Source of the DNA: Candidatus Marinacidobacterales bacterium
GTDB taxonomy: Bacteria > Acidobacteriota > Vicinamibacteria > Marinacidobacterales > DATDRI01
Direction: 5' to 3'
DNA: 64,000 nt
NCBI GenBank assembly: GCA_965226495.1
Contig: OZ245365.1
Coordinates: 5,472,001 to 5,536,000, forward strand
Shown: positions 14,971 to 34,167 of the stretch, one piece after another
Layout of the letters: every line of letters starts with the position of its first letter
How positions within the stretch are numbered: the stretch's first letter is position 1
Program-made: the position numbers and the translations under genes
The notes under the pieces: generated by a model
Told to the model about the DNA's origin: nothing
What the model saw: the letters and a program-made list of their open reading frames with translations, nothing else
The model's database searches: none

Positions 14971-17292
14971 CTAACCCTCTCCGGCGGTCAACGTGCGGAC
15001 CGGTTCATCGGCGATCTCTCGCGGCTCGCTGCCGTAGTTGTAGGTGTGGTAACCGTAGTAGTAGTTCTGAGCGTAGTCGTCTAGATCGACGGCGTTGAGC
15101 ACGACGCCTCTCACCTTACCTCCTACCCGCTCGATGGCATCCAAACTGGCCTTCACGTCTCGGTAGGAAGTTTGTCCGCTCCGCACCACCAGCAAGGAAG
15201 CATCACATCGAGTCGTCAACATATGAGAGTCGAACACCGGCAACAGAGGTGCGGAGTCCAGGAGGACAAAGTCGAAATCTCGCGAACAACGCTCGAGGAC
15301 TCCCTGCATTTCCGTCGAGGCCAGAAGCTCGGAGGGTGTAGGGCTGGCGGGTCCAGCCGGGAGCAAGGAAAGGTTCGGGATCGCAGTGCTCACGATGCCA
15401 GTGTGCTCTCCGTTGCTCTGTCCAGTGAGCATACTCGATAGTCCCATGTCGTTATCCACTCTAAACACGCGATGAACCTGAGGGTTGCGCAGATCAGCGT
15501 CTATGATGAGAACCTTTTTGTTCAACTCCGTCAGAGAGGAGGCGAGATTGCAGGCGACGAAGGTCTTGCCCGCATTCTTGTCCGGTCCGGTAACCAGTAT
15601 GACTTTCGGAGGACCACCGGGGTTGGACATCAGAAGCGAGCCTCGGATGAACTTGAATCGCTCCGCAATGACCGATCCCGCTTGCACGTAGCTGGAATGG
15701 TGTTCAGCGCTCCCCGCCGGAACCAGTGAAGACCGAGTTACCGTCCAGTCCTTTCGCGAGCCGTTCCGGTGCGTCTTTCCCCAAAAGGGAGTGAGCGTTC
15801 TTGGCTGTTGGTGGGACTCTTCATTCAACGCGAGCGGCGCGGGTTCCGGATCGTGCCGCGGAACCATTCCGAGATAGGGCAGCGGCACACGCCGTCTCAG
15901 ATCGTCCACGGTGTGAATCGAGTTGTCCCAATACTCCAAGAAGAACGCGACGCCGATAGCTATAAAAAGCCCCAGCCCGAGTCCCCATGTCGCGCTCTTT
16001 TGCAATGTGAAACCGGACGGCCCCTTCGGGACCAAGGCCCGTTCCACCATCCGTACATTCAAGGCCAGCCCTTCGCCAAGCTCGGCGTTCACGCCCGTCT
16101 CGAAGTGCCTGCGGAGAAGCTGTTGCAACATGGCCTTCTTGTTCTCGAGCTCTACGTTGATGCGATCGTAGTCCGCCGTGAGTTGGTTCAGCTGTTGCGC
16201 TTCTCGCTTCTGTTCCTCGAGCGCCTGCTGCAAGAGCTGCTCACCCTCGAGAACTGACAGGTATTCGGTTCTAGCCGCTTCAACGACGTTCTCCGCCATC
16301 TCCTCGGTTTCTCGCTCGAGTCGCAGCTCTACCTTTTCCAACGTCTCCCGCGCCCGTTGCAACTCAGGCCAATCGGCAGCGAACTTGGAAGACAGTTCCT
16401 CAACCTGATTGTGGAGCGAAGCCCGCTGCTTCTTGAGGTGTTGAATGTTGAGGTTGTTGCTCACTTCCCTGAGAGAGTTCGGGCCGGCAGCTCCCATGTT
16501 GTGATAGCGGGCCTCTAATGCGGTGCGTTGACCCCGCACGTTACTCAGCTGCTGATTCAAGTCTTTGAGTTGTTGAATAACAATGCTTTCCTCCTGATCC
16601 ACGAACACCAGGTCTTCACGACGCCGGTACTCTTGGAGATAACTCTCCTTTTCCTGGATCTCTCGATGAAGCTTGTCAATTTGCTCGCCAAAGAAGGAAG
16701 TCGTGTCCCGCGCGGAATCCGTCTCTTTCTTTGTGCTAAAGACGATGTATTGAGCAACGAGAGAATTCGCCAATTGCGCTGACAGTTGAGGATTGGGAGT
16801 GGTAAAGCTCAGCTGCATGAGCTGGCTGTTTCGAACGTGTGACACGTTCAGCATCGACAAGACGGCTCCTGCCAAAGCTTCGCGCTGCTCGGCCGTTGGT
16901 TCGGAGCGGTCGTCATCGCTTTCGAGCCGGATGTGCTCCCAAAGCTCGACATCGTCGACGACTCGTTCGGCCAACGTGAAGCTTCCCAAGACCCTCTTCT
17001 GAGTGGGATAGAATTCTTGTGATCCGAACCAAGATTCCGGAGAAACGTTCCCTTTGACGACGTTCATTCGCCCCCGATTGATTTGAAGCAGCGCGCTCGC
17101 CGTATAGACAGGTGTTCTCAGCAACGCATGGGCCACGGTTAGAGCGAGGACGCCGATCGTCACCGCGGCGATCACCCAGCGTCGTTTCAGGATGAGGAAC
17201 CAGTAATCCCGAAGATGCACCTCGGGCTCCGGCGGGTAAGGCTCCGTCCGTTCCCGCGCCTCGTCGGTTGGGATCAACTCTGCGAAGGGCAT
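14971..17292 (-). CDS. wzc: polysaccharide co-polymerase / tyrosine autokinase (Wzc/GumC-like)
   Basis: Two TM segments flanking a coiled-coil region; Walker A GPDKNAGKT, IDADLRNP, Walker B LLDSAP and a C-terminal Tyr cluster YAQNYYYGYHTYNY. Confidence 0.92.
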   Translation of the reverse strand: MPFAELIPTDEARERTEPYPPEPEVHLRDYWFLILKRRWVIAAVTIGVLALTVAHALLRTPVYTASALLQINRGRMNVVKGNVSPESWFGSQEFYPTQKRVLGSFTLAERVVDDVELWEHIRLESDDDRSEPTAEQREALAGAVLSMLNVSHVRNSQLMQLSFTTPNPQLSAQLANSLVAQYIVFSTKKETDSARDTTSFFGEQIDKLHREIQEKESYLQEYRRREDLVFVDQEESIVIQQLKDLNQQLSNVRGQRTALEARYHNMGAAGPNSLREVSNNLNIQHLKKQRASLHNQVEELSSKFAADWPELQRARETLEKVELRLERETEEMAENVVEAARTEYLSVLEGEQLLQQALEEQKREAQQLNQLTADYDRINVELENKKAMLQQLLRRHFETGVNAELGEGLALNVRMVERALVPKGPSGFTLQKSATWGLGLGLFIAIGVAFFLEYWDNSIHTVDDLRRRVPLPYLGMVPRHDPEPAPLALNEESHQQPRTLTPFWGKTHRNGSRKDWTVTRSSLVPAGSAEHHSSYVQAGSVIAERFKFIRGSLLMSNPGGPPKVILVTGPDKNAGKTFVACNLASSLTELNKKVLIIDADLRNPQVHRVFRVDNDMGLSSMLTGQSNGEHTGIVSTAIPNLSLLPAGPASPTPSELLASTEMQGVLERCSRDFDFVLLDSAPLLPVFDSHMLTTRCDASLLVVRSGQTSYRDVKASLDAIERVGGKVRGVVLNAVDLDDYAQNYYYGYHTYNYGSEPREIADEPVRTLTAGEG

Positions 17293-18399: not shown

Positions 18400-21300
18400 G
18401 TGCAGGAGGAGCGCCCGAAACCTCTGTCGCGATGGCGGCAGAAGTTGAAACAGATCAGGGTGAACATGGAGCAGGGAAAACAGAGGCATGCAAAACCGCT
18501 AACCGCGATGAAACGGCTCGCCGGTTGGTTAATCCTAAGCCCGAGCCGCTGGCTGGTACTGCTTTCTTTCCCGGCCGTACTGATCTTACTGGTCATGGTT
18601 CGAGCGGATCCTTTCCCTCCGTTCTGGGAGGGCGGCACCGGAACAGCGATTCACTATCAGCCGGTCGTTTGGCCCACGGACGACGGGGACGGAGAGCTCG
18701 ACAACGGGGACTGGACGCCGTACACCATGATCGGCGCCGACATCCAAGATCCTAAGGTTCAAGACCCTTCCAATGGGGGAACCTCGCCGCAAAACTACGT
18801 CAACATCAGCTCTGGTTGCACCGACCTGACACTACCCAGCACGTTCACCTATTTCGACGCGACGAGCCAAGTGCTCATGTTCCGCTGGCGTGTCGAGCAA
18901 ATCGCTCATACTTACGCCACCGGACCGAACGCCGGGACTGCTTCCGCGACCGATCCATGGAAGTCCGGGTTGTGGACCGTGCTCATCGACATCGACGGCG
19001 ATGGTTATCGAGAGTTTGCTATTCATCTCGACGGGTCGAGCGGCTCACCAGGCACCGACATCGATCGAATCGCCAGTATTTACAGCGACACCCCTAATCA
19101 ATCTATCGATTATGTCAACGACTCCAATATCTGCTTGCTCGAGCACAACCCAACCGCCTTCGTCGACGGTCCCACGCCGGACGGCAACACGAATCGTATT
19201 CTGAATTTTCAGAATAGTCTGACACCAACGGCATCATGGCCCAACGGCAACAGCGAGTCGGTCTGGGACTATGGAACGACTCGAGCGGTAGAGGTGGATC
19301 ACGGCACGTGTATCGAGTACTTCGTCGATTACCAGATTCCACTCGCCATGCTCAATGCGACGGCGTCGGCGTGTAACGGACCCCAGGTCACCGAAGACAC
19401 GCCGATAAGTCTCTTGTTCGCGACCGCGAACAGTCTCAACAACCCGTTGCAGAAAGACGTGGTCCTCTTTGGTGACTATATCGGCGACCCCGATGCTCCG
19501 GCCCCTTTCGGCGATCCGATAACACCCGGAGGGGGTCCTCTCCCACAGCCCGTCATCTCCGCGGTCACCGCTGCCAGCTGTGGACCGGCCACGCTTACCG
19601 CAACGGTGACCGACTCGACTCAGGTCAGCGGCGGTTCGGTCGTCGACTCAATCGCCACCGTCGACTTCTATTACTACGCAGACACCAACGCCAACGGTCA
19701 GCCGGACGACGGAAGTTCTTGGACCCCGGCCGCCGGCGCCACGAGCCCGTCATTGGGAACATGGACCGCCAGCTGGGACTCAACAAACTTGGCGCAGGGA
19801 CAGTATCTGATCGGCGTCCGGGCGGAGGATGATCAAGGCAACGTCACGTGGAGTCACCTGACGGCGGCGCAAGCGTCCCCTGATTTTGCCAACCCCACCC
19901 CCGACCCTGGCGTCGTTTTCGCGACGTTCGTCAACACCTGCGGCTCATCGCCCACCGCAAGCAAGGGCGCCAACGCCTCGGCGGTCACCGCCGGAGATCC
20001 GGTGCAGTTCACGATCACCGTGAACGCGAGCCTCGTATCCCCGCTATCGGTGAGCCAAATCGATGACGTGCTCCCGCCGGGATGGATATTCGTGAGCACA
20101 GACGGCGGCACGCTCACCCCGGCGACTTCATCACCAACTGCTGGCCAGACGGGCACCGTCTCCTGGACTTTCGCACCGGCGACCGTGATCGCAGCGGGCG
20201 GAAGCGGGACGATCGTCTTTACCGCCAGCGCTTCAACCGTCGTTGGCACTTACACCAACGTAGCCAACGCGACCACCGATCAAGGCACTGTCGAGACCAA
20301 CCCCGTCGAAGTGGCAGTGGGTGCCCCACAACTCACGATCGCGAAGAGCGCCGACGTCGCTTCCGCCGATCCCGGTGATCCGGTTACCTACACGATCACC
20401 TACTCCAACGATGCCTCGGTCACCGTGACCAATGCGGTCATCACCGATGCCCTACCGCTAGGCCTGACTTTCGTCTCGGCTGCCAACGGCGGAGTTCATG
20501 ATGGAGGGACGCCGGGGACGATTACCTGGAACATCGGTACCATCGCCGCCGGCGATGGTCCTTTTGCGGTGAGTTTCACCGCCACGGTGGACAATCCTTA
20601 TCCGGCTCTCGCCACGGTACCCTTGGTGAATACGGGAACCATCGACTCCGATCAGACGAGTCCCCTCAACGCGGATGCGTCGGTCTTCGTGAACGTCCCC
20701 CGACCCTCGCTCGCCATTCAAAAGGATGGCGACGTCACTCAGGTGCTGCCCGGAAATAACGTCGTCTACACCATCACTTACGTCAATACAGGTAACGCCG
20801 ACGCCACCAGTGTCGTCATCACAGACCCCGTACCCGCTGGCTTCACGTTCGTTTCGGCGACCGGCGGCGGTACTCACGATAGCGGAAGCCCGGGAATCGT
20901 CACCTGGAACGTGGGGACCGTTGCCGCCGGTGGCACGGGCTCGGTGATGCTGACGCTTCAAGCGACCGCCAGCGCCGCCAATCCGACTACGAATACGGCC
21001 ACCATCACCGGAACTGGAATCACTCCTGTTTTCGACGACTACGACGTGGGCATCACGCAGGGTGCTTGTGCCGTCCCCACGACCTACTACTTCAAGAACG
21101 CTACTGCCGACGTCGGATTCGCTGGGACTCGGAACATTGCGAATACGACGGCGCCCACAAGTGCGACTCCGACGGTCACCTCTACCGTCAGCGTCGGTCC
21201 GGCGAGCGCCGGTCGCACCGAGCTCCTTCGTTTCTATCAGGATCCCCCGCAGGGAAGCGCGTTCGATTTCTCGCAGGCGGTCACTGCAACCGTCTACGTG

Positions 21301-24300
21301 GACAAGAGCGGGTCACCACAGGCTATCTTCTGGTTGACCCTGTTCGATTATGATCCGGTCACCGGTACCGAAACCCAGCTCGCCACCGCCAGCACGAGTG
21401 TCCAAGGCAACAAAACGAACGAGCCGGCTGCGTTCAATCTCGGCACCCCTACCCTCACGGTTCCAGAGACCCATCGCTTGCTCTGGGTCGTCGAGGGCAC
21501 CAATGGCCACGGGGGTCAAACCAACGACGTGGCCGTCCGCTACGACGGCACGGGAAGCCCGAGCGCCTCCGACATCTGCACCAGCCCGATCACCCTAACG
21601 CTGGACAAGCAAGTCGATGTGCTCTCGGCTGGGCCCGGCGACACGCTCGTCTACACGCTCAAGTACGCCAACACCGGCCAGGGCAGTGTGACCAATGCGG
21701 TGCTGACCGATACGTTACCCGTCGGCGTTTCCTTCGACTCCGCGTTACCCGTCGCGGCGAATTGCACCGAGTCCCTCGGCGTTGTCACATGTAATTTGGG
21801 CACCGTGGCAGGAGGGACTTCAGGAACGGTGACGATCACCGTCACCGTCAGTCAGCCTCTGGCGGCAGGCATCTTCTCACTCCAGAACGATGCCACCCTC
21901 GACAGCCTCGAGACCGAACCGGTGAACGATTCGGCGACGACGACCATCGTCCGCCCGGTGCTCGGTATCACCAAGTCGGCCGACGACACGCTGCTCATTC
22001 AAGGGGACACCGTTACCTACACGCTGGAGATCACCAATAGCGGGAGTGCTAGCGCTGCGAGCGTATTGGTGAGCGACTCGCTCCCCGTCGATACGTACTT
22101 CTCGTACGTCGGGTCCAGTTGTTCCGTCGACATCTCCCTGGCACCTTCCACGTCGTCGACCACTTGCGGCGAAGCCGCCGGGGTAGTGACGGCCACCGCG
22201 GACGTTCTCGCCGTCGGCGAGACCCTCCGCATCGCCTTTCAAATGACTGTGGGTGCGGGACCGGCACCGGCGGGACTAACCGTAAAGGACAACTTCGCGA
22301 GCGCATCCGACGACAACTCCCCGAGCGTGAGCAGCAATACGGTGACAGTCACCATCAGCACCAATCCCAACTTGCAACTCGCTAAATCGTCGAACCCGGC
22401 GGCGGGTCCGCTGGATCCAGGAGATCCCGTCACCTACACGCTAGTCTTGGGTAACACCGGCTCGACCGCAGCCGATGATGTCTTGGTCGTCGACCCGATC
22501 CCGGCCAACACCAGCTACGTTCTCGGAAGCCTGATCTTTCAAGCCGTAACCCAGACGGATCCGGATGACGTCGATACCGGGCATTTCGACGCGGTGGGGA
22601 ATCGGGCCGTCTTCGATATCGGCTCCTTGGCTGCCGGCGCGTCCCGCACCATGAGCTTCCAGGTCACTGTCGATTCTCCACTACCAAACGGAACAACGCC
22701 CGTTGACAACACGGCGACAGCTACGGCTAGCAACACCGCAACCAAGCAAGCGAGCGCCAACCTCACTGCGAGCGCCGCGCCCAATCTCACTCTTACCAAG
22801 ACGGCACCGGCCACACTCGCCTTCCCGCTCACCATGCTGTCGGCGACCGTGACTGCGTCCGTAACCATCAACGTAGACGATGCCGACTTGATAGGCGTCA
22901 ACGACTACGTGTCCGTCAATGGCACGGGGGCGCGCGTTACCGCCAAGACCGGCAACACTCTGACCTTGGACACCGCGGTTACCGGCAGTGCCGGCGACAA
23001 CGTGAACCCGGTTATCGCGTTCGTGCTGCGTTACGAGAACACTGGAAACGCAAACGCCACCAACGTGTCGGTCACCGATTCACTTCCAACAAATACGGTT
23101 TTCGTCGCGGCGGACAGCGGTGGCACTCACGACGCGGGCTCACCGGGGACGGTCTCTTGGAGCCTGGGAACCGTACCGGCCGGCGGAGCCGGTAGTCTCA
23201 AGTTCTGGGCGCGACCCACCGTCGCCGGAACCTACAACAACAACGGGACCATCGATAGCGACGAAACGTCGCCCACCAACTCCAACACCACGGTGACGAC
23301 CATCGGTGCGCTGCAACCCACCAAGGTAACCAGCACGCCTAGCGTCACCAACCCAGGAGCACAGGCGACCTACACGATCTCCGTCTTCAACGGGACTGGC
23401 TCGCTCGCCACCGCCATCAACATCACCGACGAGATGGAAAAAGGCTTCAGCTTCGCAAGCAACGTCGGCTTCAATATCACCGGCGGAACGGGAGGCTCGC
23501 GGACCAGCACCACCGACCCCACGTCTGGAGACAATCCGGCGACCTGGTGCTGTTGGGATCTATCGGCCGGGGCCACGCTCGACATCCAGTATCTGGCTAA
23601 CCTATCGGACGAGGTCGGCGACGGGACTTACCAGAACAACGTGACCGTGGACTCGCAAAGCTCCAGCCACCTCCTATTCGATTTTCTGGCCACGACCCAG
23701 GAAGACGTGACCGTGAACTGGATCGGGCCGAACCATGTCGTGCTTTCCTGGATAGAGGCCTTCTACGAACAGGGCTTGGTCGTGGTGCAATGGCAAACCG
23801 ACGCCGAGGTGCGCACTTCCGGCTTTTACCTTAAGCGTTACCGACCCGAGACCGATAGGTACGAGGCGGTGCATGAAGATATGCTGCCGAGCGTCGTCGG
23901 ATCCCCTCAGGGCGGCACCTACCGGGTCGTCGATGAGGACGCGCCGCTTGGCGGTCCTCTCTCTTATGTCCTTCTGGAAATCGAGAACAACGGCAAGGAA
24001 AGAAGCTACGGACCGTTTAGCCTCGAAGTGCGCGACCAACCGTCGCTGCACGTATCCACGGCGGGGGGAACAACGAGGCCGGGCTTCCATCGAACGCCCC
24101 GTTCCCGCAGCCCGCGGAATGGACTCAACCGCTCTACCGCGGCTCTCGAAAGCCGCCGTGTCGCAAGGCGAGGAGGAAGCCGCGGCCTGAAGATAGCCGT
24201 CGATGAGTCGGGTCTCTACCGGGTAGAAGTCGCCGAGATCACCGAAGCACTCGGCCTGAAACTGGGCAGGGCGGCGCGGCTTCTACGCAAACATCGGCTG

Positions 24301-26253
24301 CGGCTCTCGGTAGACGGCGCGCGGATTCCATACTTGATTGAGGGCAGAGGCAATACCTCGGCTCTTCTATTCTACGGTGAGGGCTTCGACAGCGTCTATG
24401 CGTCGCACCGCACGTACCGCCTCAGCACCGGCCGCAGCAAGCGCATAGCGTCGGTTTCCGGCTACCCCGACGGGGTGGCGTTCGATCGGCAAACCTTCCG
24501 GGATACGGTTCGCTTCGAGGAGGATCATGTCCCCTTGGTGCTCGGGGAAGTGGACGGGGATTCGGACTTCTGGTTCTGGGACTACGTTATCGCGGGCGAC
24601 ACGCCGAAGATCTTTCCGATCGACGTGCGAGGAGTTGCACCCACCACAACCGAAGCCATCCTTCGTGTTTTCCTGCGTGGTGCCGTTGACACTGGGGCCG
24701 GCGTCCACCAGGTTCGCGTTCTCTTCAACGGCGAGCTCGTAGGACACGCTCTCCTCGAAGGCTTCGACGGCGGCGCGTTCTCTTTCGCCATACCAGCTTT
24801 TCTGCTTCGCGAAGGAGCGAATACCGTCGAGCTCGAAGGCGTGCCCCAACCGGATGTGCCGTACAGTATTGTGTATTGCGACAGTCTCTCGCTCGTGTAT
24901 GAGCGGACGTACCAGGCCCATAACGCCGCTTTGTTAGCGCGTAGCGAGGACAAGGAAGTCCTGAGCATCGGTGGATTCCCGGAACCGGACGTTCGAGTCC
25001 TCGATATCACCGACCCCCTGTTTCCACGAGAGGTTCGAGGAGTCGTGACAGAAGTGGCCCCGCTTGACGGTTATCGGGTGAGGTTTGCGTCAGTGCAGGA
25101 TGCCAAGTACCTGGCGGTCAGTGCGTCCGGTGTTCGGAAACCGGCCTCTCTACGCTGGGACTATCCGTCCCGCCTGCGAAATCGAAAGAACTCCGCCGAT
25201 TACCTGATCATAACCAGCGCCGAGCTCGCGCCTACCGCGAAGCGACTCGCCGCGCACCGCGCGGGGCAGGGACACCGCACCATGACTATCGATCTAGACG
25301 ACATCATGGATGAGTTCAATGCGGGCAACTTCGACCCTCGCGCAATCCGCTCTTTTCTCGCTCACGCTTACGCGCGCTGGCGAAAACCACCGCGCTATGT
25401 CGCGCTGGTCGGCGAAGGCACTTATGACTACAAGGACATCCGAGGGTTCGGTAACAACCATGTGCCTCCACTCATGGTTGGCGGCAGCTGGGGCCTCTAT
25501 GGCGCCGATAATCGGTTGGCCGATCTGGTCGGTGACGACGGCGTCCCCGAGATCGCCATCGGGCGGATCCCGGTGGAAAACGCCGAGCAATTGGAAGCCT
25601 ATATCGATAAGCTCATCGCCTACGAACAAAATGACGACGAGACATGGACGCGGCAAGTCTTGTTGGCCGCCGACAATCCGGACGACACCGGCGATTACCC
25701 AGCCGACAGCGAGGACTATGCAGCGTTGCTCCCCGAAGAGCTGGTGGCAAATCGGGTCTATCTTGGGCAGCTCACCGCCGAGGAGGGCTTCGAGCTGCTC
25801 ATCGCCAACTTGAACGAGGGCGTCTCCTTGATGACCTATCTGGGTCATGCCGGAATCACCCAGCTCTCCAATGAAGCACTCCTTCGCAGTGCCGACGTTC
25901 CCAACCTCACGAACGGGGACCGGCTGCCAGTGATCGCCGTGATGGGCTGCCACCTGGGCAATTTCTGGTTGCCTGGTTATTCTTCACTTGCAGAAGACCT
26001 CGTGCTCCATCCCGACGGTGGCGCGGCAGGGGTTTGGTCACCTGCCGGGCTCTCCTACAATCCTCAACGGCGGATTCTGGGAGAAGCCTATCTCCGGGCG
26101 GTCTATGAAGAAGGAATCGTGATTCTAGGCGATGCGGTCCTGCGCGCCTTGGCCGTTGCCGCGACACAACACGCCAGCGGACGGCGGGAGGTCCTGGAGA
26201 CGCAGGTTCTCTTGGGCGATCCGGCGCTAAGGCTGAAGAGCGACCACCGATGA
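18400..26253 (+). CDS. giant exported protein: about 8 DUF11-type repeats and a C-terminal C25 (gingipain/PorU-like) cysteine peptidase domain (start may be 18466 or 18508)
   Basis: Signal peptide; repeats of type L.I.K.......PGD.VTYTI.Y.N.G...AT.V.ITD.LP.G..FVSA; C25 features ADYLIIT, YVALVGEG, IAIGRIPV, YLGHAG (His), MGCHLG (Cys) and LLGDPAL. Confidence 0.88.
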   Translation: MQEERPKPLSRWRQKLKQIRVNMEQGKQRHAKPLTAMKRLAGWLILSPSRWLVLLSFPAVLILLVMVRADPFPPFWEGGTGTAIHYQPVVWPTDDGDGELDNGDWTPYTMIGADIQDPKVQDPSNGGTSPQNYVNISSGCTDLTLPSTFTYFDATSQVLMFRWRVEQIAHTYATGPNAGTASATDPWKSGLWTVLIDIDGDGYREFAIHLDGSSGSPGTDIDRIASIYSDTPNQSIDYVNDSNICLLEHNPTAFVDGPTPDGNTNRILNFQNSLTPTASWPNGNSESVWDYGTTRAVEVDHGTCIEYFVDYQIPLAMLNATASACNGPQVTEDTPISLLFATANSLNNPLQKDVVLFGDYIGDPDAPAPFGDPITPGGGPLPQPVISAVTAASCGPATLTATVTDSTQVSGGSVVDSIATVDFYYYADTNANGQPDDGSSWTPAAGATSPSLGTWTASWDSTNLAQGQYLIGVRAEDDQGNVTWSHLTAAQASPDFANPTPDPGVVFATFVNTCGSSPTASKGANASAVTAGDPVQFTITVNASLVSPLSVSQIDDVLPPGWIFVSTDGGTLTPATSSPTAGQTGTVSWTFAPATVIAAGGSGTIVFTASASTVVGTYTNVANATTDQGTVETNPVEVAVGAPQLTIAKSADVASADPGDPVTYTITYSNDASVTVTNAVITDALPLGLTFVSAANGGVHDGGTPGTITWNIGTIAAGDGPFAVSFTATVDNPYPALATVPLVNTGTIDSDQTSPLNADASVFVNVPRPSLAIQKDGDVTQVLPGNNVVYTITYVNTGNADATSVVITDPVPAGFTFVSATGGGTHDSGSPGIVTWNVGTVAAGGTGSVMLTLQATASAANPTTNTATITGTGITPVFDDYDVGITQGACAVPTTYYFKNATADVGFAGTRNIANTTAPTSATPTVTSTVSVGPASAGRTELLRFYQDPPQGSAFDFSQAVTATVYVDKSGSPQAIFWLTLFDYDPVTGTETQLATASTSVQGNKTNEPAAFNLGTPTLTVPETHRLLWVVEGTNGHGGQTNDVAVRYDGTGSPSASDICTSPITLTLDKQVDVLSAGPGDTLVYTLKYANTGQGSVTNAVLTDTLPVGVSFDSALPVAANCTESLGVVTCNLGTVAGGTSGTVTITVTVSQPLAAGIFSLQNDATLDSLETEPVNDSATTTIVRPVLGITKSADDTLLIQGDTVTYTLEITNSGSASAASVLVSDSLPVDTYFSYVGSSCSVDISLAPSTSSTTCGEAAGVVTATADVLAVGETLRIAFQMTVGAGPAPAGLTVKDNFASASDDNSPSVSSNTVTVTISTNPNLQLAKSSNPAAGPLDPGDPVTYTLVLGNTGSTAADDVLVVDPIPANTSYVLGSLIFQAVTQTDPDDVDTGHFDAVGNRAVFDIGSLAAGASRTMSFQVTVDSPLPNGTTPVDNTATATASNTATKQASANLTASAAPNLTLTKTAPATLAFPLTMLSATVTASVTINVDDADLIGVNDYVSVNGTGARVTAKTGNTLTLDTAVTGSAGDNVNPVIAFVLRYENTGNANATNVSVTDSLPTNTVFVAADSGGTHDAGSPGTVSWSLGTVPAGGAGSLKFWARPTVAGTYNNNGTIDSDETSPTNSNTTVTTIGALQPTKVTSTPSVTNPGAQATYTISVFNGTGSLATAINITDEMEKGFSFASNVGFNITGGTGGSRTSTTDPTSGDNPATWCCWDLSAGATLDIQYLANLSDEVGDGTYQNNVTVDSQSSSHLLFDFLATTQEDVTVNWIGPNHVVLSWIEAFYEQGLVVVQWQTDAEVRTSGFYLKRYRPETDRYEAVHEDMLPSVVGSPQGGTYRVVDEDAPLGGPLSYVLLEIENNGKERSYGPFSLEVRDQPSLHVSTAGGTTRPGFHRTPRSRSPRNGLNRSTAALESRRVARRGGSRGLKIAVDESGLYRVEVAEITEALGLKLGRAARLLRKHRLRLSVDGARIPYLIEGRGNTSALLFYGEGFDSVYASHRTYRLSTGRSKRIASVSGYPDGVAFDRQTFRDTVRFEEDHVPLVLGEVDGDSDFWFWDYVIAGDTPKIFPIDVRGVAPTTTEAILRVFLRGAVDTGAGVHQVRVLFNGELVGHALLEGFDGGAFSFAIPAFLLREGANTVELEGVPQPDVPYSIVYCDSLSLVYERTYQAHNAALLARSEDKEVLSIGGFPEPDVRVLDITDPLFPREVRGVVTEVAPLDGYRVRFASVQDAKYLAVSASGVRKPASLRWDYPSRLRNRKNSADYLIITSAELAPTAKRLAAHRAGQGHRTMTIDLDDIMDEFNAGNFDPRAIRSFLAHAYARWRKPPRYVALVGEGTYDYKDIRGFGNNHVPPLMVGGSWGLYGADNRLADLVGDDGVPEIAIGRIPVENAEQLEAYIDKLIAYEQNDDETWTRQVLLAADNPDDTGDYPADSEDYAALLPEELVANRVYLGQLTAEEGFELLIANLNEGVSLMTYLGHAGITQLSNEALLRSADVPNLTNGDRLPVIAVMGCHLGNFWLPGYSSLAEDLVLHPDGGAAGVWSPAGLSYNPQRRILGEAYLRAVYEEGIVILGDAVLRALAVAATQHASGRREVLETQVLLGDPALRLKSDHR

Positions 26254-26314
26254 CGGAAAGTTCTATAATGACTCTTTCCAACAAACTACTCTTAGCAGCG
26301 GGAGAGCAAATGGA

Positions 26315-26494
26315 ATGACGAAACCGGACAAGCCTTCCGAACCTCAACCAGAAGAACATTCCGGCGAGCAGCAAAACAAGAAGAAGCCGTACGAGAAACC
26401 ACGGGTGACTTTTCGGGAACCCCTCGAGGGTGTGGCCTCCATTTGTAATCCTCCCGGCAAAGGCGCCCCACCTTGCGAGTTCGCTTCCTCCTAG
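26315..26494 (+). CDS. putative RiPP precursor peptide, 59 aa
   Basis: Manual translation MTKPDKPSEPQPEEHSGEQQNKKKPYEKPRVTFREPLEGVASICNPPGKGAPPCEFASS*; GGAGAG RBS 8 nt upstream; YxxP leader motif; directly upstream of peptidase, kinase, PqqD and rSAM genes. Confidence 0.85.
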   Translation: MTKPDKPSEPQPEEHSGEQQNKKKPYEKPRVTFREPLEGVASICNPPGKGAPPCEFASS

Positions 26495-26502
26495 GCGAGG
26501 CC

Positions 26503-26913
26503 ATGAGAGAGGAGATCCTATCCGCCCTTCGGGACTTGGGGAACGAGCAGCGACTGCGCATCCGAGTTCGCGGCTTCTCGATGGCTCCCGATCTTCCGGA
26601 CGGTGCGACCGTCGAAGTGTCCCCCCGAAGAATCTACCTTCCCGGCGACGTGATCGCTTTCCTCGGGCAAAAGGGAGAGCTTCGAGTCCATCGCGTGCTC
26701 GGCTATCGGTGGAGACGCTTGGTGACCAAGGGGGATTACACGAGCTGGATCGATCCCCCAGTGACGCACGATCAAGTGCTCGGCCTGGTGCGAGCTGGCG
26801 ACTGCGCACGCTCTATCTACGAGGTTCCTATCAGCCACCGTTTCCGAGGCGTCGGCTTCTTGTTCCGAAAGCTCGTCACATGGTGCCGCGCTCCATGGGC
26901 GAGAACATCATGA
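26503..26913 (+). CDS. S24/S26 family (signal peptidase I-like) peptidase
   Basis: VRGFSMAP (Ser), PGDVIAF, VHRV (His) and VTKGD....D; no obvious TM anchor. Confidence 0.85.
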   Translation: MREEILSALRDLGNEQRLRIRVRGFSMAPDLPDGATVEVSPRRIYLPGDVIAFLGQKGELRVHRVLGYRWRRLVTKGDYTSWIDPPVTHDQVLGLVRAGDCARSIYEVPISHRFRGVGFLFRKLVTWCRAPWARTS

Positions 26914-27851
26914 GCTTCGGCGACCACTTCTTGAGCTGCCCCGATCTGTTCCCCGCCCGTCTCGCCGGTGAACCTTGGGGGAAGCGGACGGTGGCGATCG
27001 ACTTCTTGGGAGAGCGATACCGGGTCACCGGGCTCAACCAAGAACAAGCCGACGCAGTTCATGCTCACTTCGGTCCCTACTGTGTGCCCGGCGATTCCAC
27101 AGCTTCACCCGTGGTAGAGATTCGGATTTATCGTGCGGACCAAGAAGACTTCAGAAGCTTCGATCTCCGTGGCTGGGACTACACGCTAGACATGGACTAC
27201 CGGGTTGACTCCGTCCGAGTGGCCGGACTCGATTTCATGGGACTTCTCGAGTGCCGCCATGATCTCGCCGGGGCTATTTGGACGTCGGCTCGAGATGCGG
27301 GCGGCTTCTGCGGGGTGTTCGAGAACTTCCTCCGCGTAACTGCTCAATACCATTTGACCCAGTCCGGCGGTGTCTTGCTACACAGTGCCGCCCTTGTCAT
27401 AGAAGACACTGCCTATCTCTTCCCCGGTCGCTCCGGGGCTGGGAAGTCGACGCTTTGCCATCTGGCGAAGATGCAAGGATGGCGGATCTTGAGCGACGAG
27501 CTCAACGCCGTCTCGATACAAGAGGGTCGCGCAAACGTTCGGCAAGTGCCGTTCGCCGGCGACTTCGGGCAAACGAGTTGCTCGAGCAAGTCGTTTCCTC
27601 TAGCCGCCATCTTCAGGCTGTGCCAGGCGGAGGACGACACCATCCAGTCGATTTCGCCATCGCAATCGCTCGGCTCGATGTTGTCTTGCGCGCCCTTCGT
27701 GAATCTCGACCCTCACCGATGTGAAACAGCCACAACCGTGTTGGAGGAGATCGCCTCGAACCACCCCGGCTTCATACTGAATTTCTCCCTTGGGGGAAAC
27801 TTGAAAACACTCGAGAGGTTCTGCTCTCGCTCGGAGGTACCGACACTATGA
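26910..27851 (+). CDS. HPr kinase-like P-loop protein
   Basis: LLHSAALV, FPGRSGAGKSTL and LSDE motifs; ATGA overlaps on both sides. Confidence 0.8.
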   Translation: MSFGDHFLSCPDLFPARLAGEPWGKRTVAIDFLGERYRVTGLNQEQADAVHAHFGPYCVPGDSTASPVVEIRIYRADQEDFRSFDLRGWDYTLDMDYRVDSVRVAGLDFMGLLECRHDLAGAIWTSARDAGGFCGVFENFLRVTAQYHLTQSGGVLLHSAALVIEDTAYLFPGRSGAGKSTLCHLAKMQGWRILSDELNAVSIQEGRANVRQVPFAGDFGQTSCSSKSFPLAAIFRLCQAEDDTIQSISPSQSLGSMLSCAPFVNLDPHRCETATTVLEEIASNHPGFILNFSLGGNLKTLERFCSRSEVPTL

Positions 27852-28129
27852 GCCACGCCTTGCGCAAGGACGTCCGCTACCGGCTCCTCCTCAACGAAGC
27901 TGTTGTCATTCGACAAGATGCGGCCGAAGTTCTCGGATTGAACCTTGTCGGAGCCCGAGTCCTCGAGCTGATTGACCAGGGGCATGGCCAGAACGTGATC
28001 TTGACGTCACTCGCGGAGGAGTTCGATGTCGCTCCGCGCGAGCTCGAAGCGGATGTGAGCGCTTTCCTGCGAGAGCTCGTGGAACTCGATGTTATCGAGA
28101 GTGTTCAGACCGCGACCGGATCCAACTGA
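27848..28129 (+). CDS. PqqD family protein (RiPP recognition element)
   Basis: 93 aa; EAVVI...EVLGLNLVGARVLELID......L.EEFDV....LEADVSAFLRELVELDVI. Confidence 0.9.
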   Translation: MSHALRKDVRYRLLLNEAVVIRQDAAEVLGLNLVGARVLELIDQGHGQNVILTSLAEEFDVAPRELEADVSAFLRELVELDVIESVQTATGSN

Positions 28130-28130
28130 T

Positions 28131-29195
28131 ATGGGCTACCACGATGTGATGAAGCGGATGGCCGATGAGTACGGCCTGTTGTCGGTCCTCTTGGAGCTCA
28201 CCTACCGTTGCAACCTCGATTGCTTCTTCTGCTACAACGATCTCAACCTCGAGGGGGAGCGACTTTCCACCGAGGACTATCTCCGTCTACTCCAAGACCT
28301 ACGCGACTTACAGGTTATGGTTCTCGTTGTTTCAGGCGGAGAGCCTTTGGCGAGTCCGGCGTTTTGGCCTCTCGGGGTTAGGGCCCGAGAGTTGGGCTTC
28401 GTCACCCGCATCAAATCGAACGGGCACGCCTTGGGAAAAGAAATCGCGCACCGGTTGAAGACCGAGTTGGACCCCTATATCGTCGAAATCAGCCTACACG
28501 GCGCTTGCGCCGAGACCCATGACCGCCAGACTCGGGTCGAAGGAAGCTTCGACAAGCTGACCGCCAACCTAGAAGAGATGCGCCGGGCTGGTTTGCGGGT
28601 CAAGCTCAACAGCACGTTCACCCGCTGGAACGAGAACGAAATCGATAAGATGTTCGCCCTCGCAGACGAAATGGATATTCCGCTTTCTATCGATGCTGTG
28701 GTTACCCCCAGAGACGACGGCGATCGCGAGCCCCTCGCAATCGCCGCCTCGGCCGAAGGCGTGGCGCATCTCTATTCATTGCTCCGAGAGCGAAAAGGGC
28801 AGCCTCCCCAAGAGACGTTCTCGGTTAGCCAGAATGCTCGGAAGAACTGCGGTACCGGCTCCGCGACACTCGCGGTCGATCCCTTTGGAAACGTGTACCC
28901 GTGCATTCAGTGGCGCAGGCCGGTTGGAAACCTACACCGACAATCGGTCAAGGAGATCTGGGGCGGATCCAACAAAGCGCTCGATGAGATCCGGCAATTG
29001 AACACAGAAGCGGGGCGATTGGTGGACAGCTTGGGCCCCGCGGGTCAGGACATGGGATTCTGCCTCGGGCTGGCGGAAGAGCTGACCGGCGATCCTCTCG
29101 CTCTTTATCCCCAGGCCGAGCGAAACCTGCGCGTCCTGCAAGAATTACAGACGAAAACCGAGACGATACGCCTGCCTATTTACGGACAGGACTAA
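28131..29195 (+). CDS. radical SAM protein with a reduced SPASM/twitch domain
   Basis: ELTYRCNLDCFFCY (CxxxCxxC), SGGEPL, ISLHG and CGTG...VDPFGNVYPC. Confidence 0.93.
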   Translation: MGYHDVMKRMADEYGLLSVLLELTYRCNLDCFFCYNDLNLEGERLSTEDYLRLLQDLRDLQVMVLVVSGGEPLASPAFWPLGVRARELGFVTRIKSNGHALGKEIAHRLKTELDPYIVEISLHGACAETHDRQTRVEGSFDKLTANLEEMRRAGLRVKLNSTFTRWNENEIDKMFALADEMDIPLSIDAVVTPRDDGDREPLAIAASAEGVAHLYSLLRERKGQPPQETFSVSQNARKNCGTGSATLAVDPFGNVYPCIQWRRPVGNLHRQSVKEIWGGSNKALDEIRQLNTEAGRLVDSLGPAGQDMGFCLGLAEELTGDPLALYPQAERNLRVLQELQTKTETIRLPIYGQD

Positions 29196-30822
29196 TTCCT
29201 TTCGGGTCTCGATCGAGCCCGACAACAACTCCCACGATAACACTGAGAAGTGCCGCGTTCGCGGGCAGATGAAGACTGAAATCGGTGAAGCTATGAAGCG
29301 CGATTGCCAACGCCGCCGAGCAATATCCGGCGTGCAAATGGAGTGCGGCACGGTCACCGAGTAGCCTTTGTCGAGTGTGCCAAGCCGCCTTCCAAACGCT
29401 GACTACGAGCCACAAGAAAAGTAGCAGCCCGGGAACGCCGAGCTCTATAAGAAGCTGCAAATAGTCGTTGTGGGTGTGGGTGTAGGAGACAGCCCCTCCA
29501 AAGCTTCGGTAGATGGGGAAGATGTGACCGAAGGTGCCTAAACCCGATCCGGTAAGCCAGAAATCGCTCGTCGCCTGCACGCTGTCCGACCACACTCGCT
29601 GACGCCCCACCTCCGCGTTCCAAAGCTCGGCGACCGCGTCGAAACGCTGAGCCAAGATACCCATTCCAAACCAAATGACGATCCCGGCGACGACGAAAGA
29701 GAAAGCTCGAAGGCTTCGCGCCGCGTAGCGCGCCGGTTCGCCAGCACGAACTTCGATCGGCCCTGCTTCTGGCGATCGCGAGCCGGCCAATACGGTGAAG
29801 AACGCAAGGGCGGCTACCGCCGCGATGATCCCCGACCGGGAGAGCGAAAAGAGGAGCCCCAGGCCAATCACGATGAGCCCGAAGCCCACAACGACGGACT
29901 TGGCTCGCGACTCTTGCCGGACGACATTGGCTAGGCGCGAGAAGCCGCTTCTTCGTGCGTCACCGGCGTCGACACGAGCCATCCGAGCACCAATCCAGCC
30001 GACGCTCACGAGCAAGAGCATTTCCATGCTGGCAGCATAATGGTTGGGGTTGCCAAACGTCCCGCGAGCTCGGAGTCCCACATCCGACGGATCGGCGCCG
30101 AGCAGTTCCTGCAATCCAACAAGCCACTGAGCTACCCCGTAAAGACCAGCCGCGACACCCACTATCAGGAACATCGACGAGAGACGGTCAACGGAGCGGC
30201 GATTCGAAGCCAAGCAAACGCCAACGTAGAAAAGAGCGAGGTAGGCCACCCAAAGGCAAAGTCCGCGCTCGGTTAGAAAGCTAGACAATGTTATGGGTGC
30301 TTCGATCGAAACTTCGTCGTCGAGCATAAGGCCTTGAGCTGCCATCCGGATCTCGCTCGCTCGCGGGGATAGCCGAAGCATCCAACCTTCACTCAGTGGT
30401 AGTAAGGACGCTCCCATCCAAACGGTGAGCAGCAAAAGGGGCATTCCCAAGCTGGCTCGCTTGAATTCGTATCCGGCACAGAAGAAGGAATCGGGGCGCC
30501 TCTCAGGACGACCCGGAAGCAGAATCTCGACTCCCGCTGTACTTCCTCTGGCAGGAAAGAGGCCTAGACTCAACATACGGCTCACGGTAGCTAGGTGCGG
30601 ATACCGAACGGCGAAAGGCAGTTTCCGCGAGGCACGCCGTTCCTCCAAGTTGCGCGCCCTTTCTTCCGGCTTGGTAGACCACAGGACACGCAAGAGAACC
30701 CATGACAAGAGAGAACCCGCCCCGAGCTCAAGGAGGAGGGTAGCCCACGGCGCGTAGCCTCCCCAACCCAGGGTCACACAAACCAGCCATAGCACGATGA
30801 CGTAGGGAAGGTGACGGAGCAT
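29176..30822 (-). CDS. O-antigen ligase / oligosaccharyltransferase (Wzy_C) family membrane protein
   Basis: RARGTFGNPNHYA, SLSRSG, GSGLGTF, HTHNDYLQLLIELG and HSFTDFSLH motifs. Confidence 0.88.
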   Translation of the reverse strand: MLRHLPYVIVLWLVCVTLGWGGYAPWATLLLELGAGSLLSWVLLRVLWSTKPEERARNLEERRASRKLPFAVRYPHLATVSRMLSLGLFPARGSTAGVEILLPGRPERRPDSFFCAGYEFKRASLGMPLLLLTVWMGASLLPLSEGWMLRLSPRASEIRMAAQGLMLDDEVSIEAPITLSSFLTERGLCLWVAYLALFYVGVCLASNRRSVDRLSSMFLIVGVAAGLYGVAQWLVGLQELLGADPSDVGLRARGTFGNPNHYAASMEMLLLVSVGWIGARMARVDAGDARRSGFSRLANVVRQESRAKSVVVGFGLIVIGLGLLFSLSRSGIIAAVAALAFFTVLAGSRSPEAGPIEVRAGEPARYAARSLRAFSFVVAGIVIWFGMGILAQRFDAVAELWNAEVGRQRVWSDSVQATSDFWLTGSGLGTFGHIFPIYRSFGGAVSYTHTHNDYLQLLIELGVPGLLLFLWLVVSVWKAAWHTRQRLLGDRAALHLHAGYCSAALAIALHSFTDFSLHLPANAALLSVIVGVVVGLDRDPKGISPVRK

Positions 30823-30838
30823 TTGCCTTGTTGCCTTG

Positions 30839-32038
30839 TTACGAACCTTCTGCAGATGGCTTGTTCAGAAGCAAGAGTTGTCTAAGCTCTCCATCGGCTT
30901 GGGAATGTTGCGGATGGAGCCGCAGGACTTCCCGGTAGGCCTCAATCGAGGCACGCCGTTTCCCGGCCTTGCGGTACACACGGGCCAAGCCAAGCCGTGA
31001 GTCGGGATCGTTGGGAGCAGCTTCGGTGGCCTTCAGCAAGAGGCTCTCTGCCATAACCACCTGGTCCGCCCTCAGATACTGGTAGCCCATGCCTCTCAAA
31101 AGCTCCACGCTAGCCGAAGACGATGCGCCGGCATGACGCTCTACCTTCTTTAACGCTTCGCTAAAGGCCTCATACGCTCTCTCCGGCTGACCTAGCTCGA
31201 GATGAGCCCTCGCTACCACCAAGGCGGCGCGAGCAAAATCTCTCCCCGCGCGCCCCGAGCGATCCTCCTGCTCGAGCCACTCCTGCCCCGTTCGAAGCGC
31301 GATTGCGGGCGCGTTCCATTCGAAGGCCCATCGTGCCGCGTCGAAGAAAAATTCTCTCTCCGAGGCCGATTCGAGAACCCCGGCGAGAACGTCCAGGGCT
31401 TCGGTTCTGTGCGACGACCTGGCGAGGGCTAGGGCGAGCTCTTTTCTTGCCGGAACGGTCTCGGGTGTCAGGTCGCGCCACTTGTCCGCCGGCACGCCGC
31501 TCCAAGCGACGAGCTTCAACGAGGCGGGGACGAGGTCGGGCTCTAGCTTCATCGCCAACGCCAGATGACCCAGCCCGCGACGGCGAGCATCACCGAACTC
31601 GTCCGACCTTCGCGACGCCACCTTTTCTATTCGAAGCGGCTCGACCCTAGGTGTAAGCAACCATTGCGCGTACGCGAAACGAAGACGTCCATTAGAAGGA
31701 GAAAGCTCGATGGTCGCTTCGAAGGCCCGCTCGGTGAGCTCGCGTTCTTCCAGTCGATTTGCCAAAAAAGCAGCAAGTAGAAATGGCGACTGATAGGAGG
31801 CGGGAGCCTCTTTCAACGATTGGCGAAGATAGGGCAGAATGCTACCAGAGAAGTTCTTGGACTCGATGGCGTGACGAGTGAGGCCCAATGTTGCTTCGGG
31901 ATGTCGCAGCCGTGGGCTCGACTCGAGCTCGATCTCACTGGGAAAGCGCGCCCAGCTCTCTTGCTCATAGAAGAAGAACGAGGCCCCTGCATAAGCGCCT
32001 GCGACGATGGCGAGGATGCTAGTCAGGACGAAACGCAT
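30839..32038 (-). CDS. exported or membrane-anchored tetratricopeptide repeat protein
   Basis: N-terminal hydrophobic segment; TPR-like helices, e.g. APNDPDSRLGLARVYRKAG...YREVLRLHP. Confidence 0.7.
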   Translation of the reverse strand: MRFVLTSILAIVAGAYAGASFFFYEQESWARFPSEIELESSPRLRHPEATLGLTRHAIESKNFSGSILPYLRQSLKEAPASYQSPFLLAAFLANRLEERELTERAFEATIELSPSNGRLRFAYAQWLLTPRVEPLRIEKVASRRSDEFGDARRRGLGHLALAMKLEPDLVPASLKLVAWSGVPADKWRDLTPETVPARKELALALARSSHRTEALDVLAGVLESASEREFFFDAARWAFEWNAPAIALRTGQEWLEQEDRSGRAGRDFARAALVVARAHLELGQPERAYEAFSEALKKVERHAGASSSASVELLRGMGYQYLRADQVVMAESLLLKATEAAPNDPDSRLGLARVYRKAGKRRASIEAYREVLRLHPQHSQADGELRQLLLLNKPSAEGS

Positions 32039-32060
32039 GGTGTTGCAGAAAGAATGGAGT

Positions 32061-34034: not shown

Positions 34035-34167
34035 GCGTCCGGAATCCCCGGCAAAAAGATCCGGTATTGCTCTCGTTGGCGCGTATTAGGGGAATGCTAT
34101 ATTAGGCTGTTATTGTCTTATTTTGCCACACTTTACAGGAACTTACAATGAGAAAGGGGGGGGCATA

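Follow-up and report, generated by a model that had tools for sequence, protein, structure and literature searches.

A candidate radical SAM variant of phosphopeptide RiPP cassettes, genetically linked to secreted C25 proteins in Acidobacteriota

We analysed a 64,000-nucleotide stretch of DNA (the window; contig OZ245365.1 of assembly GCA_965226495.1, positions 5,472,001 to 5,536,000 of the forward strand) from a Candidatus Marinacidobacterales bacterium of the Acidobacteriota. Six same-strand genes fill positions 18400-29195 (+) of the window and encode, in this order, a giant protein with a Peptidase_C25 domain, a 59-amino-acid open reading frame (ORF) product, an S26-type peptidase, an HprK-like kinase, a PqqD protein and a radical S-adenosylmethionine (SAM) enzyme. 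The reading that we prefer, with a probability of about 0.6, is that these genes constitute a maturation cassette for a peptide made on ribosomes and modified after its translation (RiPP), that the cassette is built on the chassis of linear polyphosphorylated peptides (LPPs) and phosphorylated lasso peptides with the addition of a radical SAM cross-linker, and that it is genetically tied to a secreted C25 protein resembling PorU and gingipains. The variant is widespread, and it is undescribed in the literature that we searched.

Arrangement and distribution of the cassette

The six genes are located as follows.

18400..26253, plus strand: giant DUF11/Peptidase_C25 ORF, 2617 amino acids
26315..26494, plus strand: precursor ORF, 59 amino acids, 61 nt past the giant
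26503..26913, plus strand: S26-type (S24/S26-like) peptidase, 136 amino acids, preceded by an 8-nt gap
26910..27851, plus strand: HprK-like kinase, 313 amino acids, ATGA overlap with the peptidase gene
27848..28129, plus strand: PqqD, 93 amino acids, ATGA overlap with the kinase gene
28131..29195, plus strand: radical SAM enzyme, 354 amino acids, 1-nt gap after PqqD

The common orientation, the gaps of 61, 8 and 1 nt and the two ATGA overlaps are exactly as had been described in an earlier note on this DNA. The true start codon of the giant is probably the ATG at 18466.

Conservation was counted over 49 loci, namely the window and 48 stretches that were seeded on HprK-like kinases and were each at most ~21 kb long. 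For the window's phylum, 32 of 118 kinase matches were fetched, taken from the top by E-value; left aside were the short contigs G085:C50, G362:C270 and G379:C276, the unpublished genome G192, second matches per genome and matches below about E = 1e-40. The genome tallies behind this sampling include the unpublished genomes G007 and G192, and no locus was taken from either of them. PqqD was found in 47 of the 49 loci and the radical SAM enzyme in 45; 37 loci have the precursor, 35 have a C25 gene and 20 have an S26-like gene. A neighbourhood search of genome contigs confirmed at least eight related loci. Both the short ORF and the C25 gene are conserved around the kinase seeds, which supports the reading of the earlier note that the genes are a RiPP-type cassette with a short YxxP...C...C...S precursor and a C25 partner.

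By our own mapping of families, 15 GTDB families were sampled, and in 11 of them the C25 gene lay inside the stretch that was fetched; it was also present in single loci labelled Nitrospira, Anaerolineales and Blastocatellia. The system occurs outside Bacillota, in Acidobacteriota and in single Nitrospira and Anaerolineales loci. When genes neighbouring the cassette were clustered across the 49 loci, the next gene families were present in at most 10 of them and no transporter was conserved; the ORF caller makes wrong-strand calls in G+C-rich DNA, and small families may have been missed in this clustering.

A conserved family of precursor peptides

The 59-amino-acid ORF product matched no model in Pfam or NCBIfam. 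It contains a YxxP motif (Y26-x-x-P29) in its leader together with Cys44, Cys54 and the C-terminal Ser59 in its predicted core, and a cut predicted after Ala41 would yield an 18-residue core, Ser42-Ser59. In an alignment of 25 sequences (A3), P29, E38, A41 and C44 were invariant, and Tyr26, Glu35, Cys54 and the C-terminal Ser59 were kept in at least 90%. A precursor profile run against 5.8 billion proteins retrieved 373 homologues (clusters at 90% identity) out of 556 candidates, all of which are independent gene calls of ~37-70 amino acids that are annotated as hypothetical and unnamed. Among the best 120 of the 373, the pattern [YWF]xxP-x11-A-xx-C was present in all 120, exactly two Cys followed the Ala in 119, the C-terminal residue was Ser in 116, Thr in 3 and Leu in 1, and the median predicted core was 21 residues long. 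Spacing from the Tyr is fixed: Y+9 and Y+12 are occupied by Glu, Y+15 by Ala and Y+18 by Cys. Many homologues begin outright with MKKPYEKP, and the long N-terminal extension of the window's copy is therefore dispensable. Judged by these sequence features, the short ORF represents a genuine conserved peptide family.

Leader recognition and cleavage

The 93-amino-acid protein matched Pfam PqqD with 47.8 bits against a cut-off of 23.4 (E=1.8e-12), and its nearest NCBIfam models, both matched under their cut-offs, were those of lasso PqqD chaperones. It is a discrete PqqD-type RiPP recognition element (RRE).

For the 136-amino-acid peptidase, the only Pfam match was to Peptidase_S24, at 20.1 bits against a cut-off of 23.3. 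A 17-sequence profile (alignment A2) matched human SEC11A and SEC11C as its best solved relatives (E=2e-12), with SM-P, HRV and GD boxes. His63, Arg64 and Asp78 were invariant in this alignment, and position 26 was Ser in 14 of the 17 sequences and Cys in the other 3, an exchange of Ser26 only for Cys that fits expectation for a catalytic position. The protein, which has no obvious membrane segment, can be assigned from its profile matches as a homologue of endoplasmic reticulum/archaeal-type signal peptidase I (S26B-type).

To a three-chain model of PqqD, precursor and peptidase an ipSAE score of 0.70 was assigned, compared with 0.27 for the best control; at least 83% of contacts were common to the model runs, and the pLDDT of the partners was at least 79. 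In this model, residues 36-43 of the precursor rest on three stretches of the peptidase (18-28, 59-63 and 77-82) that contain Ser26, His63 and Asp78, with the Ala41-Ser42 bond placed at the active site, and the N-terminal helix of the peptidase packs on PqqD residues 10-28 (sheet). Release of the peptide by the S26-type peptidase, as the earlier note had envisaged, is thus consistent with the model, whose pass is a matter of model confidence and not a measurement. In the available part of the LPP report, the published AlphaFold3 model of LppS-LppB-LppA (PMC13381572) has matching geometry.

The HprK-like kinase

The kinase-like protein had no match in the copy of Pfam that was scanned; its relatives carry PF27840.1. 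The NCBIfam model HprK_rel_A was matched with E=1e-12 and 47.6 bits, against a cut-off of 200. H158, K179 and D196 were invariant in 23 of 23 sequences, and these residues correspond to the His-Lys-Asp(-Asp) motif of lasso-peptide kinases as given in the available part of a review (PMC9266682). With an AlphaFold2 model of the protein (pLDDT of 87.6), the top Foldseek match was PEPCK (E=3e-8) and HPr kinase 1knx stood at rank 45. The Foldseek matches therefore indicate the PEPCK/HprK P-loop fold, at low TM-scores. A profile of the kinase run against PDB sequences gave P-loop-level matches only, with HprK at E about 0.3.

The kinase family is large: 627 word-indexed homologues carry PF27840.1, and when the profile was run against 1.84 billion representatives, 512 clusters (50% identity) matched at E<=1e-30. 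From the window's phylum 401 genomes were sampled (one unpublished genome included), and 91 of them had a match at E<=1e-25, a threshold that admits HprK-like proteins more distant than the cassette's own. Named carriers of the family belong to Thermoanaerobaculia, Vicinamibacteria and other Acidobacteriota.

Two side observations concern this family. A 403-amino-acid database protein (P0014) fuses PF27840 (kinase-like) with PF05402 (PqqD). The window's own genome also contains, at G000:C1:3474308-3476729 (-; L002), a paralogous pair of radical SAM (274 bits with our radical SAM hidden Markov model, HMM) and HprK-like (111 bits) genes, beside which no PqqD, precursor or C25 gene was detected.

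The radical SAM enzyme

The radical SAM protein matched Pfam Radical_SAM with 62.3 bits and SPASM partially, with 33 bits over profile positions 1-52 of 67. Its CX3CX2C motif consists of Cys27, Cys31 and Cys34, and the only further Cys residues invariant in 38 of 38 sequences were Cys240, Cys258 and Cys311. Given their number and conservation, these three residues fit a twitch-like site for a single auxiliary cluster better than they fit a complete SPASM domain with its seven Cys. A 3-Cys auxiliary site would fit substrate-thiolate binding, as proposed for thioether synthases. The nearest solved structures were BlsE, PqqE and SkfB, all of them distant; the PDB match 5wgg is an entry that we take to be CteB-like.

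Sactipeptides and ranthipeptides are RiPPs with thioethers made by radical SAM enzymes, as in the SkfB, CteB and PapB systems. They have in common with the cassette an RRE, a short Cys-containing core and a radical SAM enzyme whose auxiliary-cluster domain is of the SPASM or twitch type. The window's system differs from them in that its RRE is a separate protein and in that the kinase, the S26-type peptidase and the C25 protein are foreign to those classes.

One locus from an Anaerolineales metagenome-assembled genome (L026, 9812-18886) contains genes for the kinase-like, S26-like and PqqD proteins and two C25 genes, without a radical SAM gene. Its short YxxP ORF keeps the Ala at Y+15, has no Cys at all and does not end in Ser. 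It is the one case in which the pair of Cys residues and the radical SAM gene are missing together, and the link that it suggests between them is circumstantial.

The C25 protein and its linkage to the peptide gene

The giant has an N-terminal hydrophobic segment, eight DUF11 stretches and a Peptidase_C25 domain at residues 2268-2612 (274.7 bits). The C25 domain and the region preceding it align to PorU (6za2, E=2e-16) and to RgpB/gingipain R (1cvr, E=8e-10). As in gingipains and PorU, the sortase of the type IX secretion system (T9SS), the catalytic His and Cys are present: His211 and Cys244 are conserved in the window's giant, and neither residue varies among the cassette-linked C25 domains (34 of 34). 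The NCBIfam model T9SS_sortase (NF033707) was matched with E=1.4e-63 and 215 bits, short of its equivalog cut-off of 420 bits, and, unlike PorU, the linked C25 proteins are giant or mid-size secreted Acidobacteriota proteins with DUF11 and other repeats. N-terminal signal-peptide-like segments are found in the C25 proteins. The giant is a protein, secreted or anchored, whose C-terminal C25 domain resembles those of PorU and the gingipains.

Precursor and C25 gene were both present in 28 loci; all 28 have them on one strand, and in 26 the distance between them is less than 400 nt. In locus L061 two C25 genes occur, and a separate copy of the precursor comes after each of them. In a phylogenetic tree, the C25 protein of the window grouped with linked C25 proteins of other families (support 97/96), and six unlinked paralogues from the window's genome formed a separate clade (support 100/100). 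The linkage is therefore old and orthologous and not a chance effect of high copy number. The view of the earlier note that the C25 protein is a real partner is upheld by its presence in the loci, its adjacency to the precursor and the clade of linked C25 proteins.

Several further observations were made on C25 genes. In the window's own genome, the region G000:C1:597377-667778 contains seven very large frames of up to ~18.5 kb, six of which have full-length C25 domains and form a tight, recently expanded clade; the precursor HMM found no precursor-like ORF there. Elsewhere in the same genome (G000:C1:222763-252152), two giant C25-type frames (~4476 and ~3166 amino acids) are divergent from a second Wzc-like gene (248173-250431), and a second PqqD-like ORF (251853-252152) is situated near them; no kinase, radical SAM or precursor match was obtained in that region. 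The C25 proteins of six loci (L022, L023 and L060-L063) have a short Pro/Gly-rich tail after the C25 domain, which ends in Gly-Glu in five of the six and in ...RRTE in L022; the window's giant is without such a tail.

In a genome of the same genus (G002; L014, ~6900-11320, compared with window 6810-26253), homologues of the ATP-grasp and PepX genes abut a C25 remnant consisting of the last 117 codons, 91% identical, and the genes from precursor to radical SAM are retained. The ~16 kb absent in G002 comprises genes for a cytochrome P450, a hydrolase, an amidohydrolase, the nucleotidyltransferase, Wzc and the 254-amino-acid ORF described below, as well as most of the giant. Split matches in G002 (radical SAM, Wzy, Polysacc_synt_2) were considered as gene decay, and this was rejected; many genes are split in that genome, which looks like indel error.

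Comparison with described systems

The described system closest in operation is that of the LPP RiPPs (LppA/K/B/S/D/N) of Bacillota (Popov et al., Nat Commun 2026, PMC13381572). According to the available part of that report, to which all statements on LPP given here refer, the LPP set combines a signal peptidase of archaeal type with an RRE, an HprK-like kinase and an NTP transferase and is found in capsule loci of Bacilli, and phosphorylation and leader cleavage are proven by genetics, biochemistry and mass spectrometry. The leader motif is YxxPxVLxHQxIxFET|xxS; LppS cuts after T-1 only when the leader is presented by LppB, LppK polyphosphorylates Ser3 of the core, and the product is linear. 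LPP and paeninodin biosynthetic gene clusters are both located in capsule loci without a known functional link. Our comparison with LppS, LppK and LppN was made by published description and motif.

The two systems share a discrete RRE together with an HprK-like kinase, a leader peptidase resembling signal peptidase I, a YxxP leader that is cut 15 residues past the Tyr (at T-1 in LPP and at the invariant Ala here), a polysaccharide-locus setting and a peptidase N-terminal helix modelled on the RRE-leader sheet. The window's system differs from LPP in its radical SAM enzyme and two invariant core Cys residues and in its adjacent secreted C25 protein, and no MsbA-like exporter was found for it. 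Presence of the radical SAM enzyme implies a core that is non-linear or otherwise altered, unlike that of LPP. Y+18 is the invariant Cys44 here and the phosphorylated Ser3 in LPP, with a conserved C-terminal Ser in the present family, and the rest of the LPP precursor motif is not matched: Y+9 and Y+12 are Glu, Y+15 is Ala and Y+18 is Cys. The NTP transferase belongs to the core set of LPP. Here, the window has an NTP_transf_5 gene on the opposite strand, and such a gene occurs in 12 of 49 loci (strongly in 10). LPP is described as restricted to Bacillota, in contrast to the distribution given above.

In phosphorylated lasso peptides (paeninodin, pseudomycoidin, ThcoA and SyanA), a discrete PqqD/B1 RRE reads YxxP, as it is expected to do here. 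In the available part of the review, lasso kinases with a His-Lys-Asp-Asp motif phosphorylate the conserved C-terminal Ser of the precursor and PsmN adds a hexose to the phosphoserine (PMC9266682). No asparagine-synthase-like macrolactam cyclase, transglutaminase-like (B2) peptidase or ABC transporter was found with Pfam among the 32 window ORFs of at least 150 amino acids that were scanned (58763-59401 and 63166-63999 were omitted from the scan); the window has a radical SAM enzyme and an S26-type peptidase instead.

SynChlorMet (ScmC/D/E/F; TIGR04248-04251), which is defined by bioinformatics only, likewise combines HprK-like, PqqD and radical SAM/SPASM proteins, and it has two radical SAM genes where the window's system has one. 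All four of its models failed, with scores of 37 bits for ScmC (cut-off 125), 24 for ScmD (100), 75 for ScmE (400) and 56 for ScmF (400). The HPr-rel-A models (TIGR04352/TIGR04353) also stayed under their cut-offs, with 47.6 of 200 bits for the kinase and 22.8 of 35 bits for PqqD. From these sequence comparisons, the cassette is placed outside SynChlorMet, HPr-rel-A, lasso and LPP systems as they are defined, and would work like LPP with additions.

The earlier note had pointed to the missing lasso cyclase and had proposed a test against the SynChlorMet models, and in that test every score was far under its cut-off. Its further statement that no characterised pathway has this composition needs to be narrowed: LPP has an S26-type peptidase, an RRE, an HprK-like kinase and an NTP transferase, and the radical SAM enzyme and the C25 protein are what is extra. 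We did not find the variant with radical SAM and C25 in print, in a search that excluded subscription journals and supplementary files, and found no later work on LPP beyond PMC13381572. The available parts of PMC12710340 and PMC10288494 make no mention of HPr, kinase, C25, Acidobacter or signal peptidase.

Polysaccharide genes and other surroundings

The following features flank the six genes.

13733..14944, minus strand: NTP_transf_5 nucleotidyltransferase (Pfam NTP_transf_5, E=8e-46), upstream, accessory
14971..17292, minus strand: Wzc-like chain-length determinant with P-loop ATPase (Pfam Wzz and AAA_31/CbiA), context
29176..44797, minus strand: exopolysaccharide locus (Pfam), downstream context

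The exopolysaccharide locus encodes Wzy_C, TPR, Polysacc_synt_2, DegT aminotransferase, PglD-like acetyltransferase and Bac_transf+GT4 proteins, three GT4 proteins, an FkbM methyltransferase, a 534-amino-acid protein without a Pfam match and a flippase-like protein. The ORFs for this 534-amino-acid protein (40959-42563, -) and for a 254-amino-acid protein upstream of the giant (17508-18272, +) had no match in Pfam, and no homologue of the latter was found in the other 48 loci.

Across the survey, NTP_transf_5 was present in 12 of 49 loci and Wzc in 11 of 49, with 10 strong cases each, and polysaccharide genes were situated near the cassette in ~10 of 49. The earlier note had named the nucleotidyltransferase among the genes to be scored for co-occurrence; neither it nor the polysaccharide setting belongs to the core, both being lineage-specific (10-12 of 49 loci). 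The nucleotidyltransferase is accessory, and it is linked with the cassette only within the taxonomic order to which the window belongs.

In the seven loci of a sister family (f2; L015-L021), the gene order is Wzc, nucleotidyltransferase, HprK-like kinase, PqqD and radical SAM; the nucleotidyltransferase gene is co-directional with and next to the kinase-PqqD-radical SAM genes in all seven, with Wzc directly before it. A Ser/Thr protein kinase (Pkinase) gene precedes Wzc in the two loci scanned for it (L016 and L017). Six of the seven f2 loci have a precursor gene, encoded on the opposite strand, and none was detected in L017; in the two loci scanned (L015 and L016) the precursor gene is located just 3' of a BBP2_2 putative beta-barrel porin gene.

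A second NTP_transf_5 gene of the window's genome abuts a second S26-like gene at G000:C1:313081-314741 (-), with a Wzc-like gene ~5 kb off, an arrangement that suggests an LPP-like partial module elsewhere in the genome. Within the window, a full rRNA operon (5S, 23S, two tRNAs and 16S) occupies 45259-50627 on the minus strand and is the cause of a gap in long ORFs and a dip in G+C content. DNA nearly identical to window 25800-29300 (0.79-1.00 of sampled words) is held in 20 public runs from 7 studies with several organism labels, none of which is recorded as RNA.

Discussion

We propose the following course of maturation, in which the first five steps are drawn from homology, conservation and one model, and the sixth from gene linkage. 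PqqD would bind the leader through Y26-x-x-P29, as suggested by knowledge of its family and by the complex model. The radical SAM enzyme would then act on the core, most likely at Cys44 and Cys54, to form thioether or other cross-links, and the HprK-like kinase would phosphorylate the near-invariant Ser59 in the manner of PadeK, ThcoK and PsmK. Where present, NTP_transf_5 may add a sugar to the phosphate, like PsmN. The soluble SEC11/SipW-type peptidase, seated on the PqqD-leader sheet, is modelled to cut after Ala41 (Y+15) and thereby to free the 18-residue core; the distance of this cut from YxxP is the same as that of the LppS cut in the LPP description. The mature peptide may finally act with, or be processed by, the C25 protein outside the cytoplasm. 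For this last step the earlier note had gone further, having the peptide work with the C25 protein in the cell envelope; gene linkage is what we have for it, and the claim is not supported as written.

A number of observations weigh against the cassette proposed here. Every step of it is a prediction from sequence, model or gene linkage. The genome of the window has ~10 giant C25 paralogues and one precursor only, and most C25 proteins therefore work without such a peptide. In seven f2 loci the genes for the kinase, PqqD and the radical SAM enzyme occur, together with the precursor in six, without a C25 gene within ~10 kb; no S26-like gene is located near them either, and their genomes have 3-20 C25 matches elsewhere. 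Conversely, five loci of family f45 have a C25 gene and no detectable precursor, and a YxxP+Cys filter for divergent precursors in these five loci, L017 and L081 gave none that was convincing. Only 20 of 49 loci have the S26-like gene next to the cassette; a search of five f2 genomes and five f34/f45/f74 genomes located S26-like genes at other places in every one of them, and these distant copies may serve other systems. There is no conserved exporter in the 49 loci, while the C25 proteins carry signal peptides, which leaves the meeting of peptide and C25 protein unexplained. By analogy with LPP, in which the position of Cys44 is taken by Ser3, the target of the kinase could differ from Ser59. 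The ipSAE mark was passed by 58 of 80 solved complexes and by 2 of 110 mismatched pairs, a calibration that is only approximate for our complex because its alignments were self-built, and the pass may partly reflect likeness to known RRE-leader complexes. The counts over the 49 loci were obtained with HMMs that had been iterated on the same loci.

Among other explanations, the one that survives best, which we regard as unlikely, is that the C25 protein itself acts on the peptide, either as a leader or maturation protease after export or as a PorU-like transpeptidase (sortase). Such a transpeptidase would, with the same small likelihood, join the peptide to another molecule, for example the giant protein or a glycan, and the freed N-terminal amine of the core or a phospho-glycosylated C-terminus might link to exopolysaccharide. 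The C25 protein is the most conserved non-cytoplasmic partner (35 of 49 loci, compared with 20 of 49 for the S26-like peptidase), its gene is adjacent to and co-oriented with that of the peptide, its His and Cys are invariant in 34 of 34, its best solved relative is the T9SS sortase PorU, and the T9SS_sortase match has E=1.4e-63; the score of 215 bits is, however, far under the cut-off of 420. The window and the f2 loci are found in polysaccharide loci with Wzc, Wzy and nucleotidyltransferase genes, and the hexose that lasso PsmN puts on phosphoserine (PMC9266682, available part) is in line with a sugar link, but polysaccharide genes are near the cassette in only ~10 of 49 loci. Export of the peptide is without evidence, given that no transporter is conserved, and the ~10 C25 giants of the window's genome without peptides also speak against this explanation.

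It is quite unlikely, in our estimate, that the product is an ordinary diffusible bioactive or signalling peptide, cross-linked and phosphorylated, with a C25 protein that is merely co-regulated or co-inherited, for example as an unrelated surface protein of the same regulon. Every cytoplasmic enzyme for a stand-alone RiPP is present, the seven f2 loci lack an adjacent C25 gene, C25 proteins are numerous (3-20 matches per genome), and LPP and paeninodin gene clusters are likewise situated in capsule loci without a known functional link (PMC13381572, available part). Peptide and C25 genes are, however, adjacent and in the same orientation in 26-28 of 28 loci over many families, the linkage is orthologous and not a product of recent paralogy, the C25/precursor duplication in L061 is one-to-one, and no exporter is conserved.

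An extended form of the transpeptidase idea, which we consider improbable and mention as speculation, is that the cassette and the C25 protein constitute a cell-surface conjugation system, in which a radical SAM-cross-linked peptide with a C-terminal phosphoserine is the dedicated substrate or acceptor of a PorU-like C25 transpeptidase. It is no more probable that this phosphoserine is, in some lineages, extended with sugar or linked to exopolysaccharide, the peptide then joining giant adhesin-like proteins covalently, as a linker or a cap, to the layer of polysaccharide. If true, this would be a sortase-type anchoring pathway with a RiPP adaptor, widespread in Acidobacteriota.

That the kinase-like protein and the radical SAM enzyme have a target other than the short ORF, such as the C25 protein or a sugar, with the short ORF as a regulator or adaptor, is very improbable: the kinase falls under every curated family cut-off, its N-terminal domain has no assigned function, its fold match is PEPCK-like only and five f45 loci have no detectable precursor, but the short ORF has its YxxP, two Cys and terminal Ser at fixed spacing in 116-120 of the 120 best homologues, PqqD is present in 47 of 49 loci, and the complex model places the peptide in the active site of the peptidase.

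With the RiPP maturation cassette as the preferred reading, the genes belong to a large and unnamed family, with 512 kinase clusters and 373 precursor clusters. The logic of LPP, as the available part of its description gives it, with a leader presented by an RRE, a signal-peptidase-like protease and a peptide kinase, would extend beyond Bacillota and would here be combined with the chemistry of a radical SAM enzyme and with a cysteine protease or transpeptidase that is secreted. The precursor is short and fixed, with a leader of ~20 and a core of ~18-23 amino acids, so that heterologous reconstitution should be straightforward. A tractable member of the family could reveal the role of a phosphorylated peptide in capsule or biofilm biology and the purpose of the giant acidobacterial C25 proteins.

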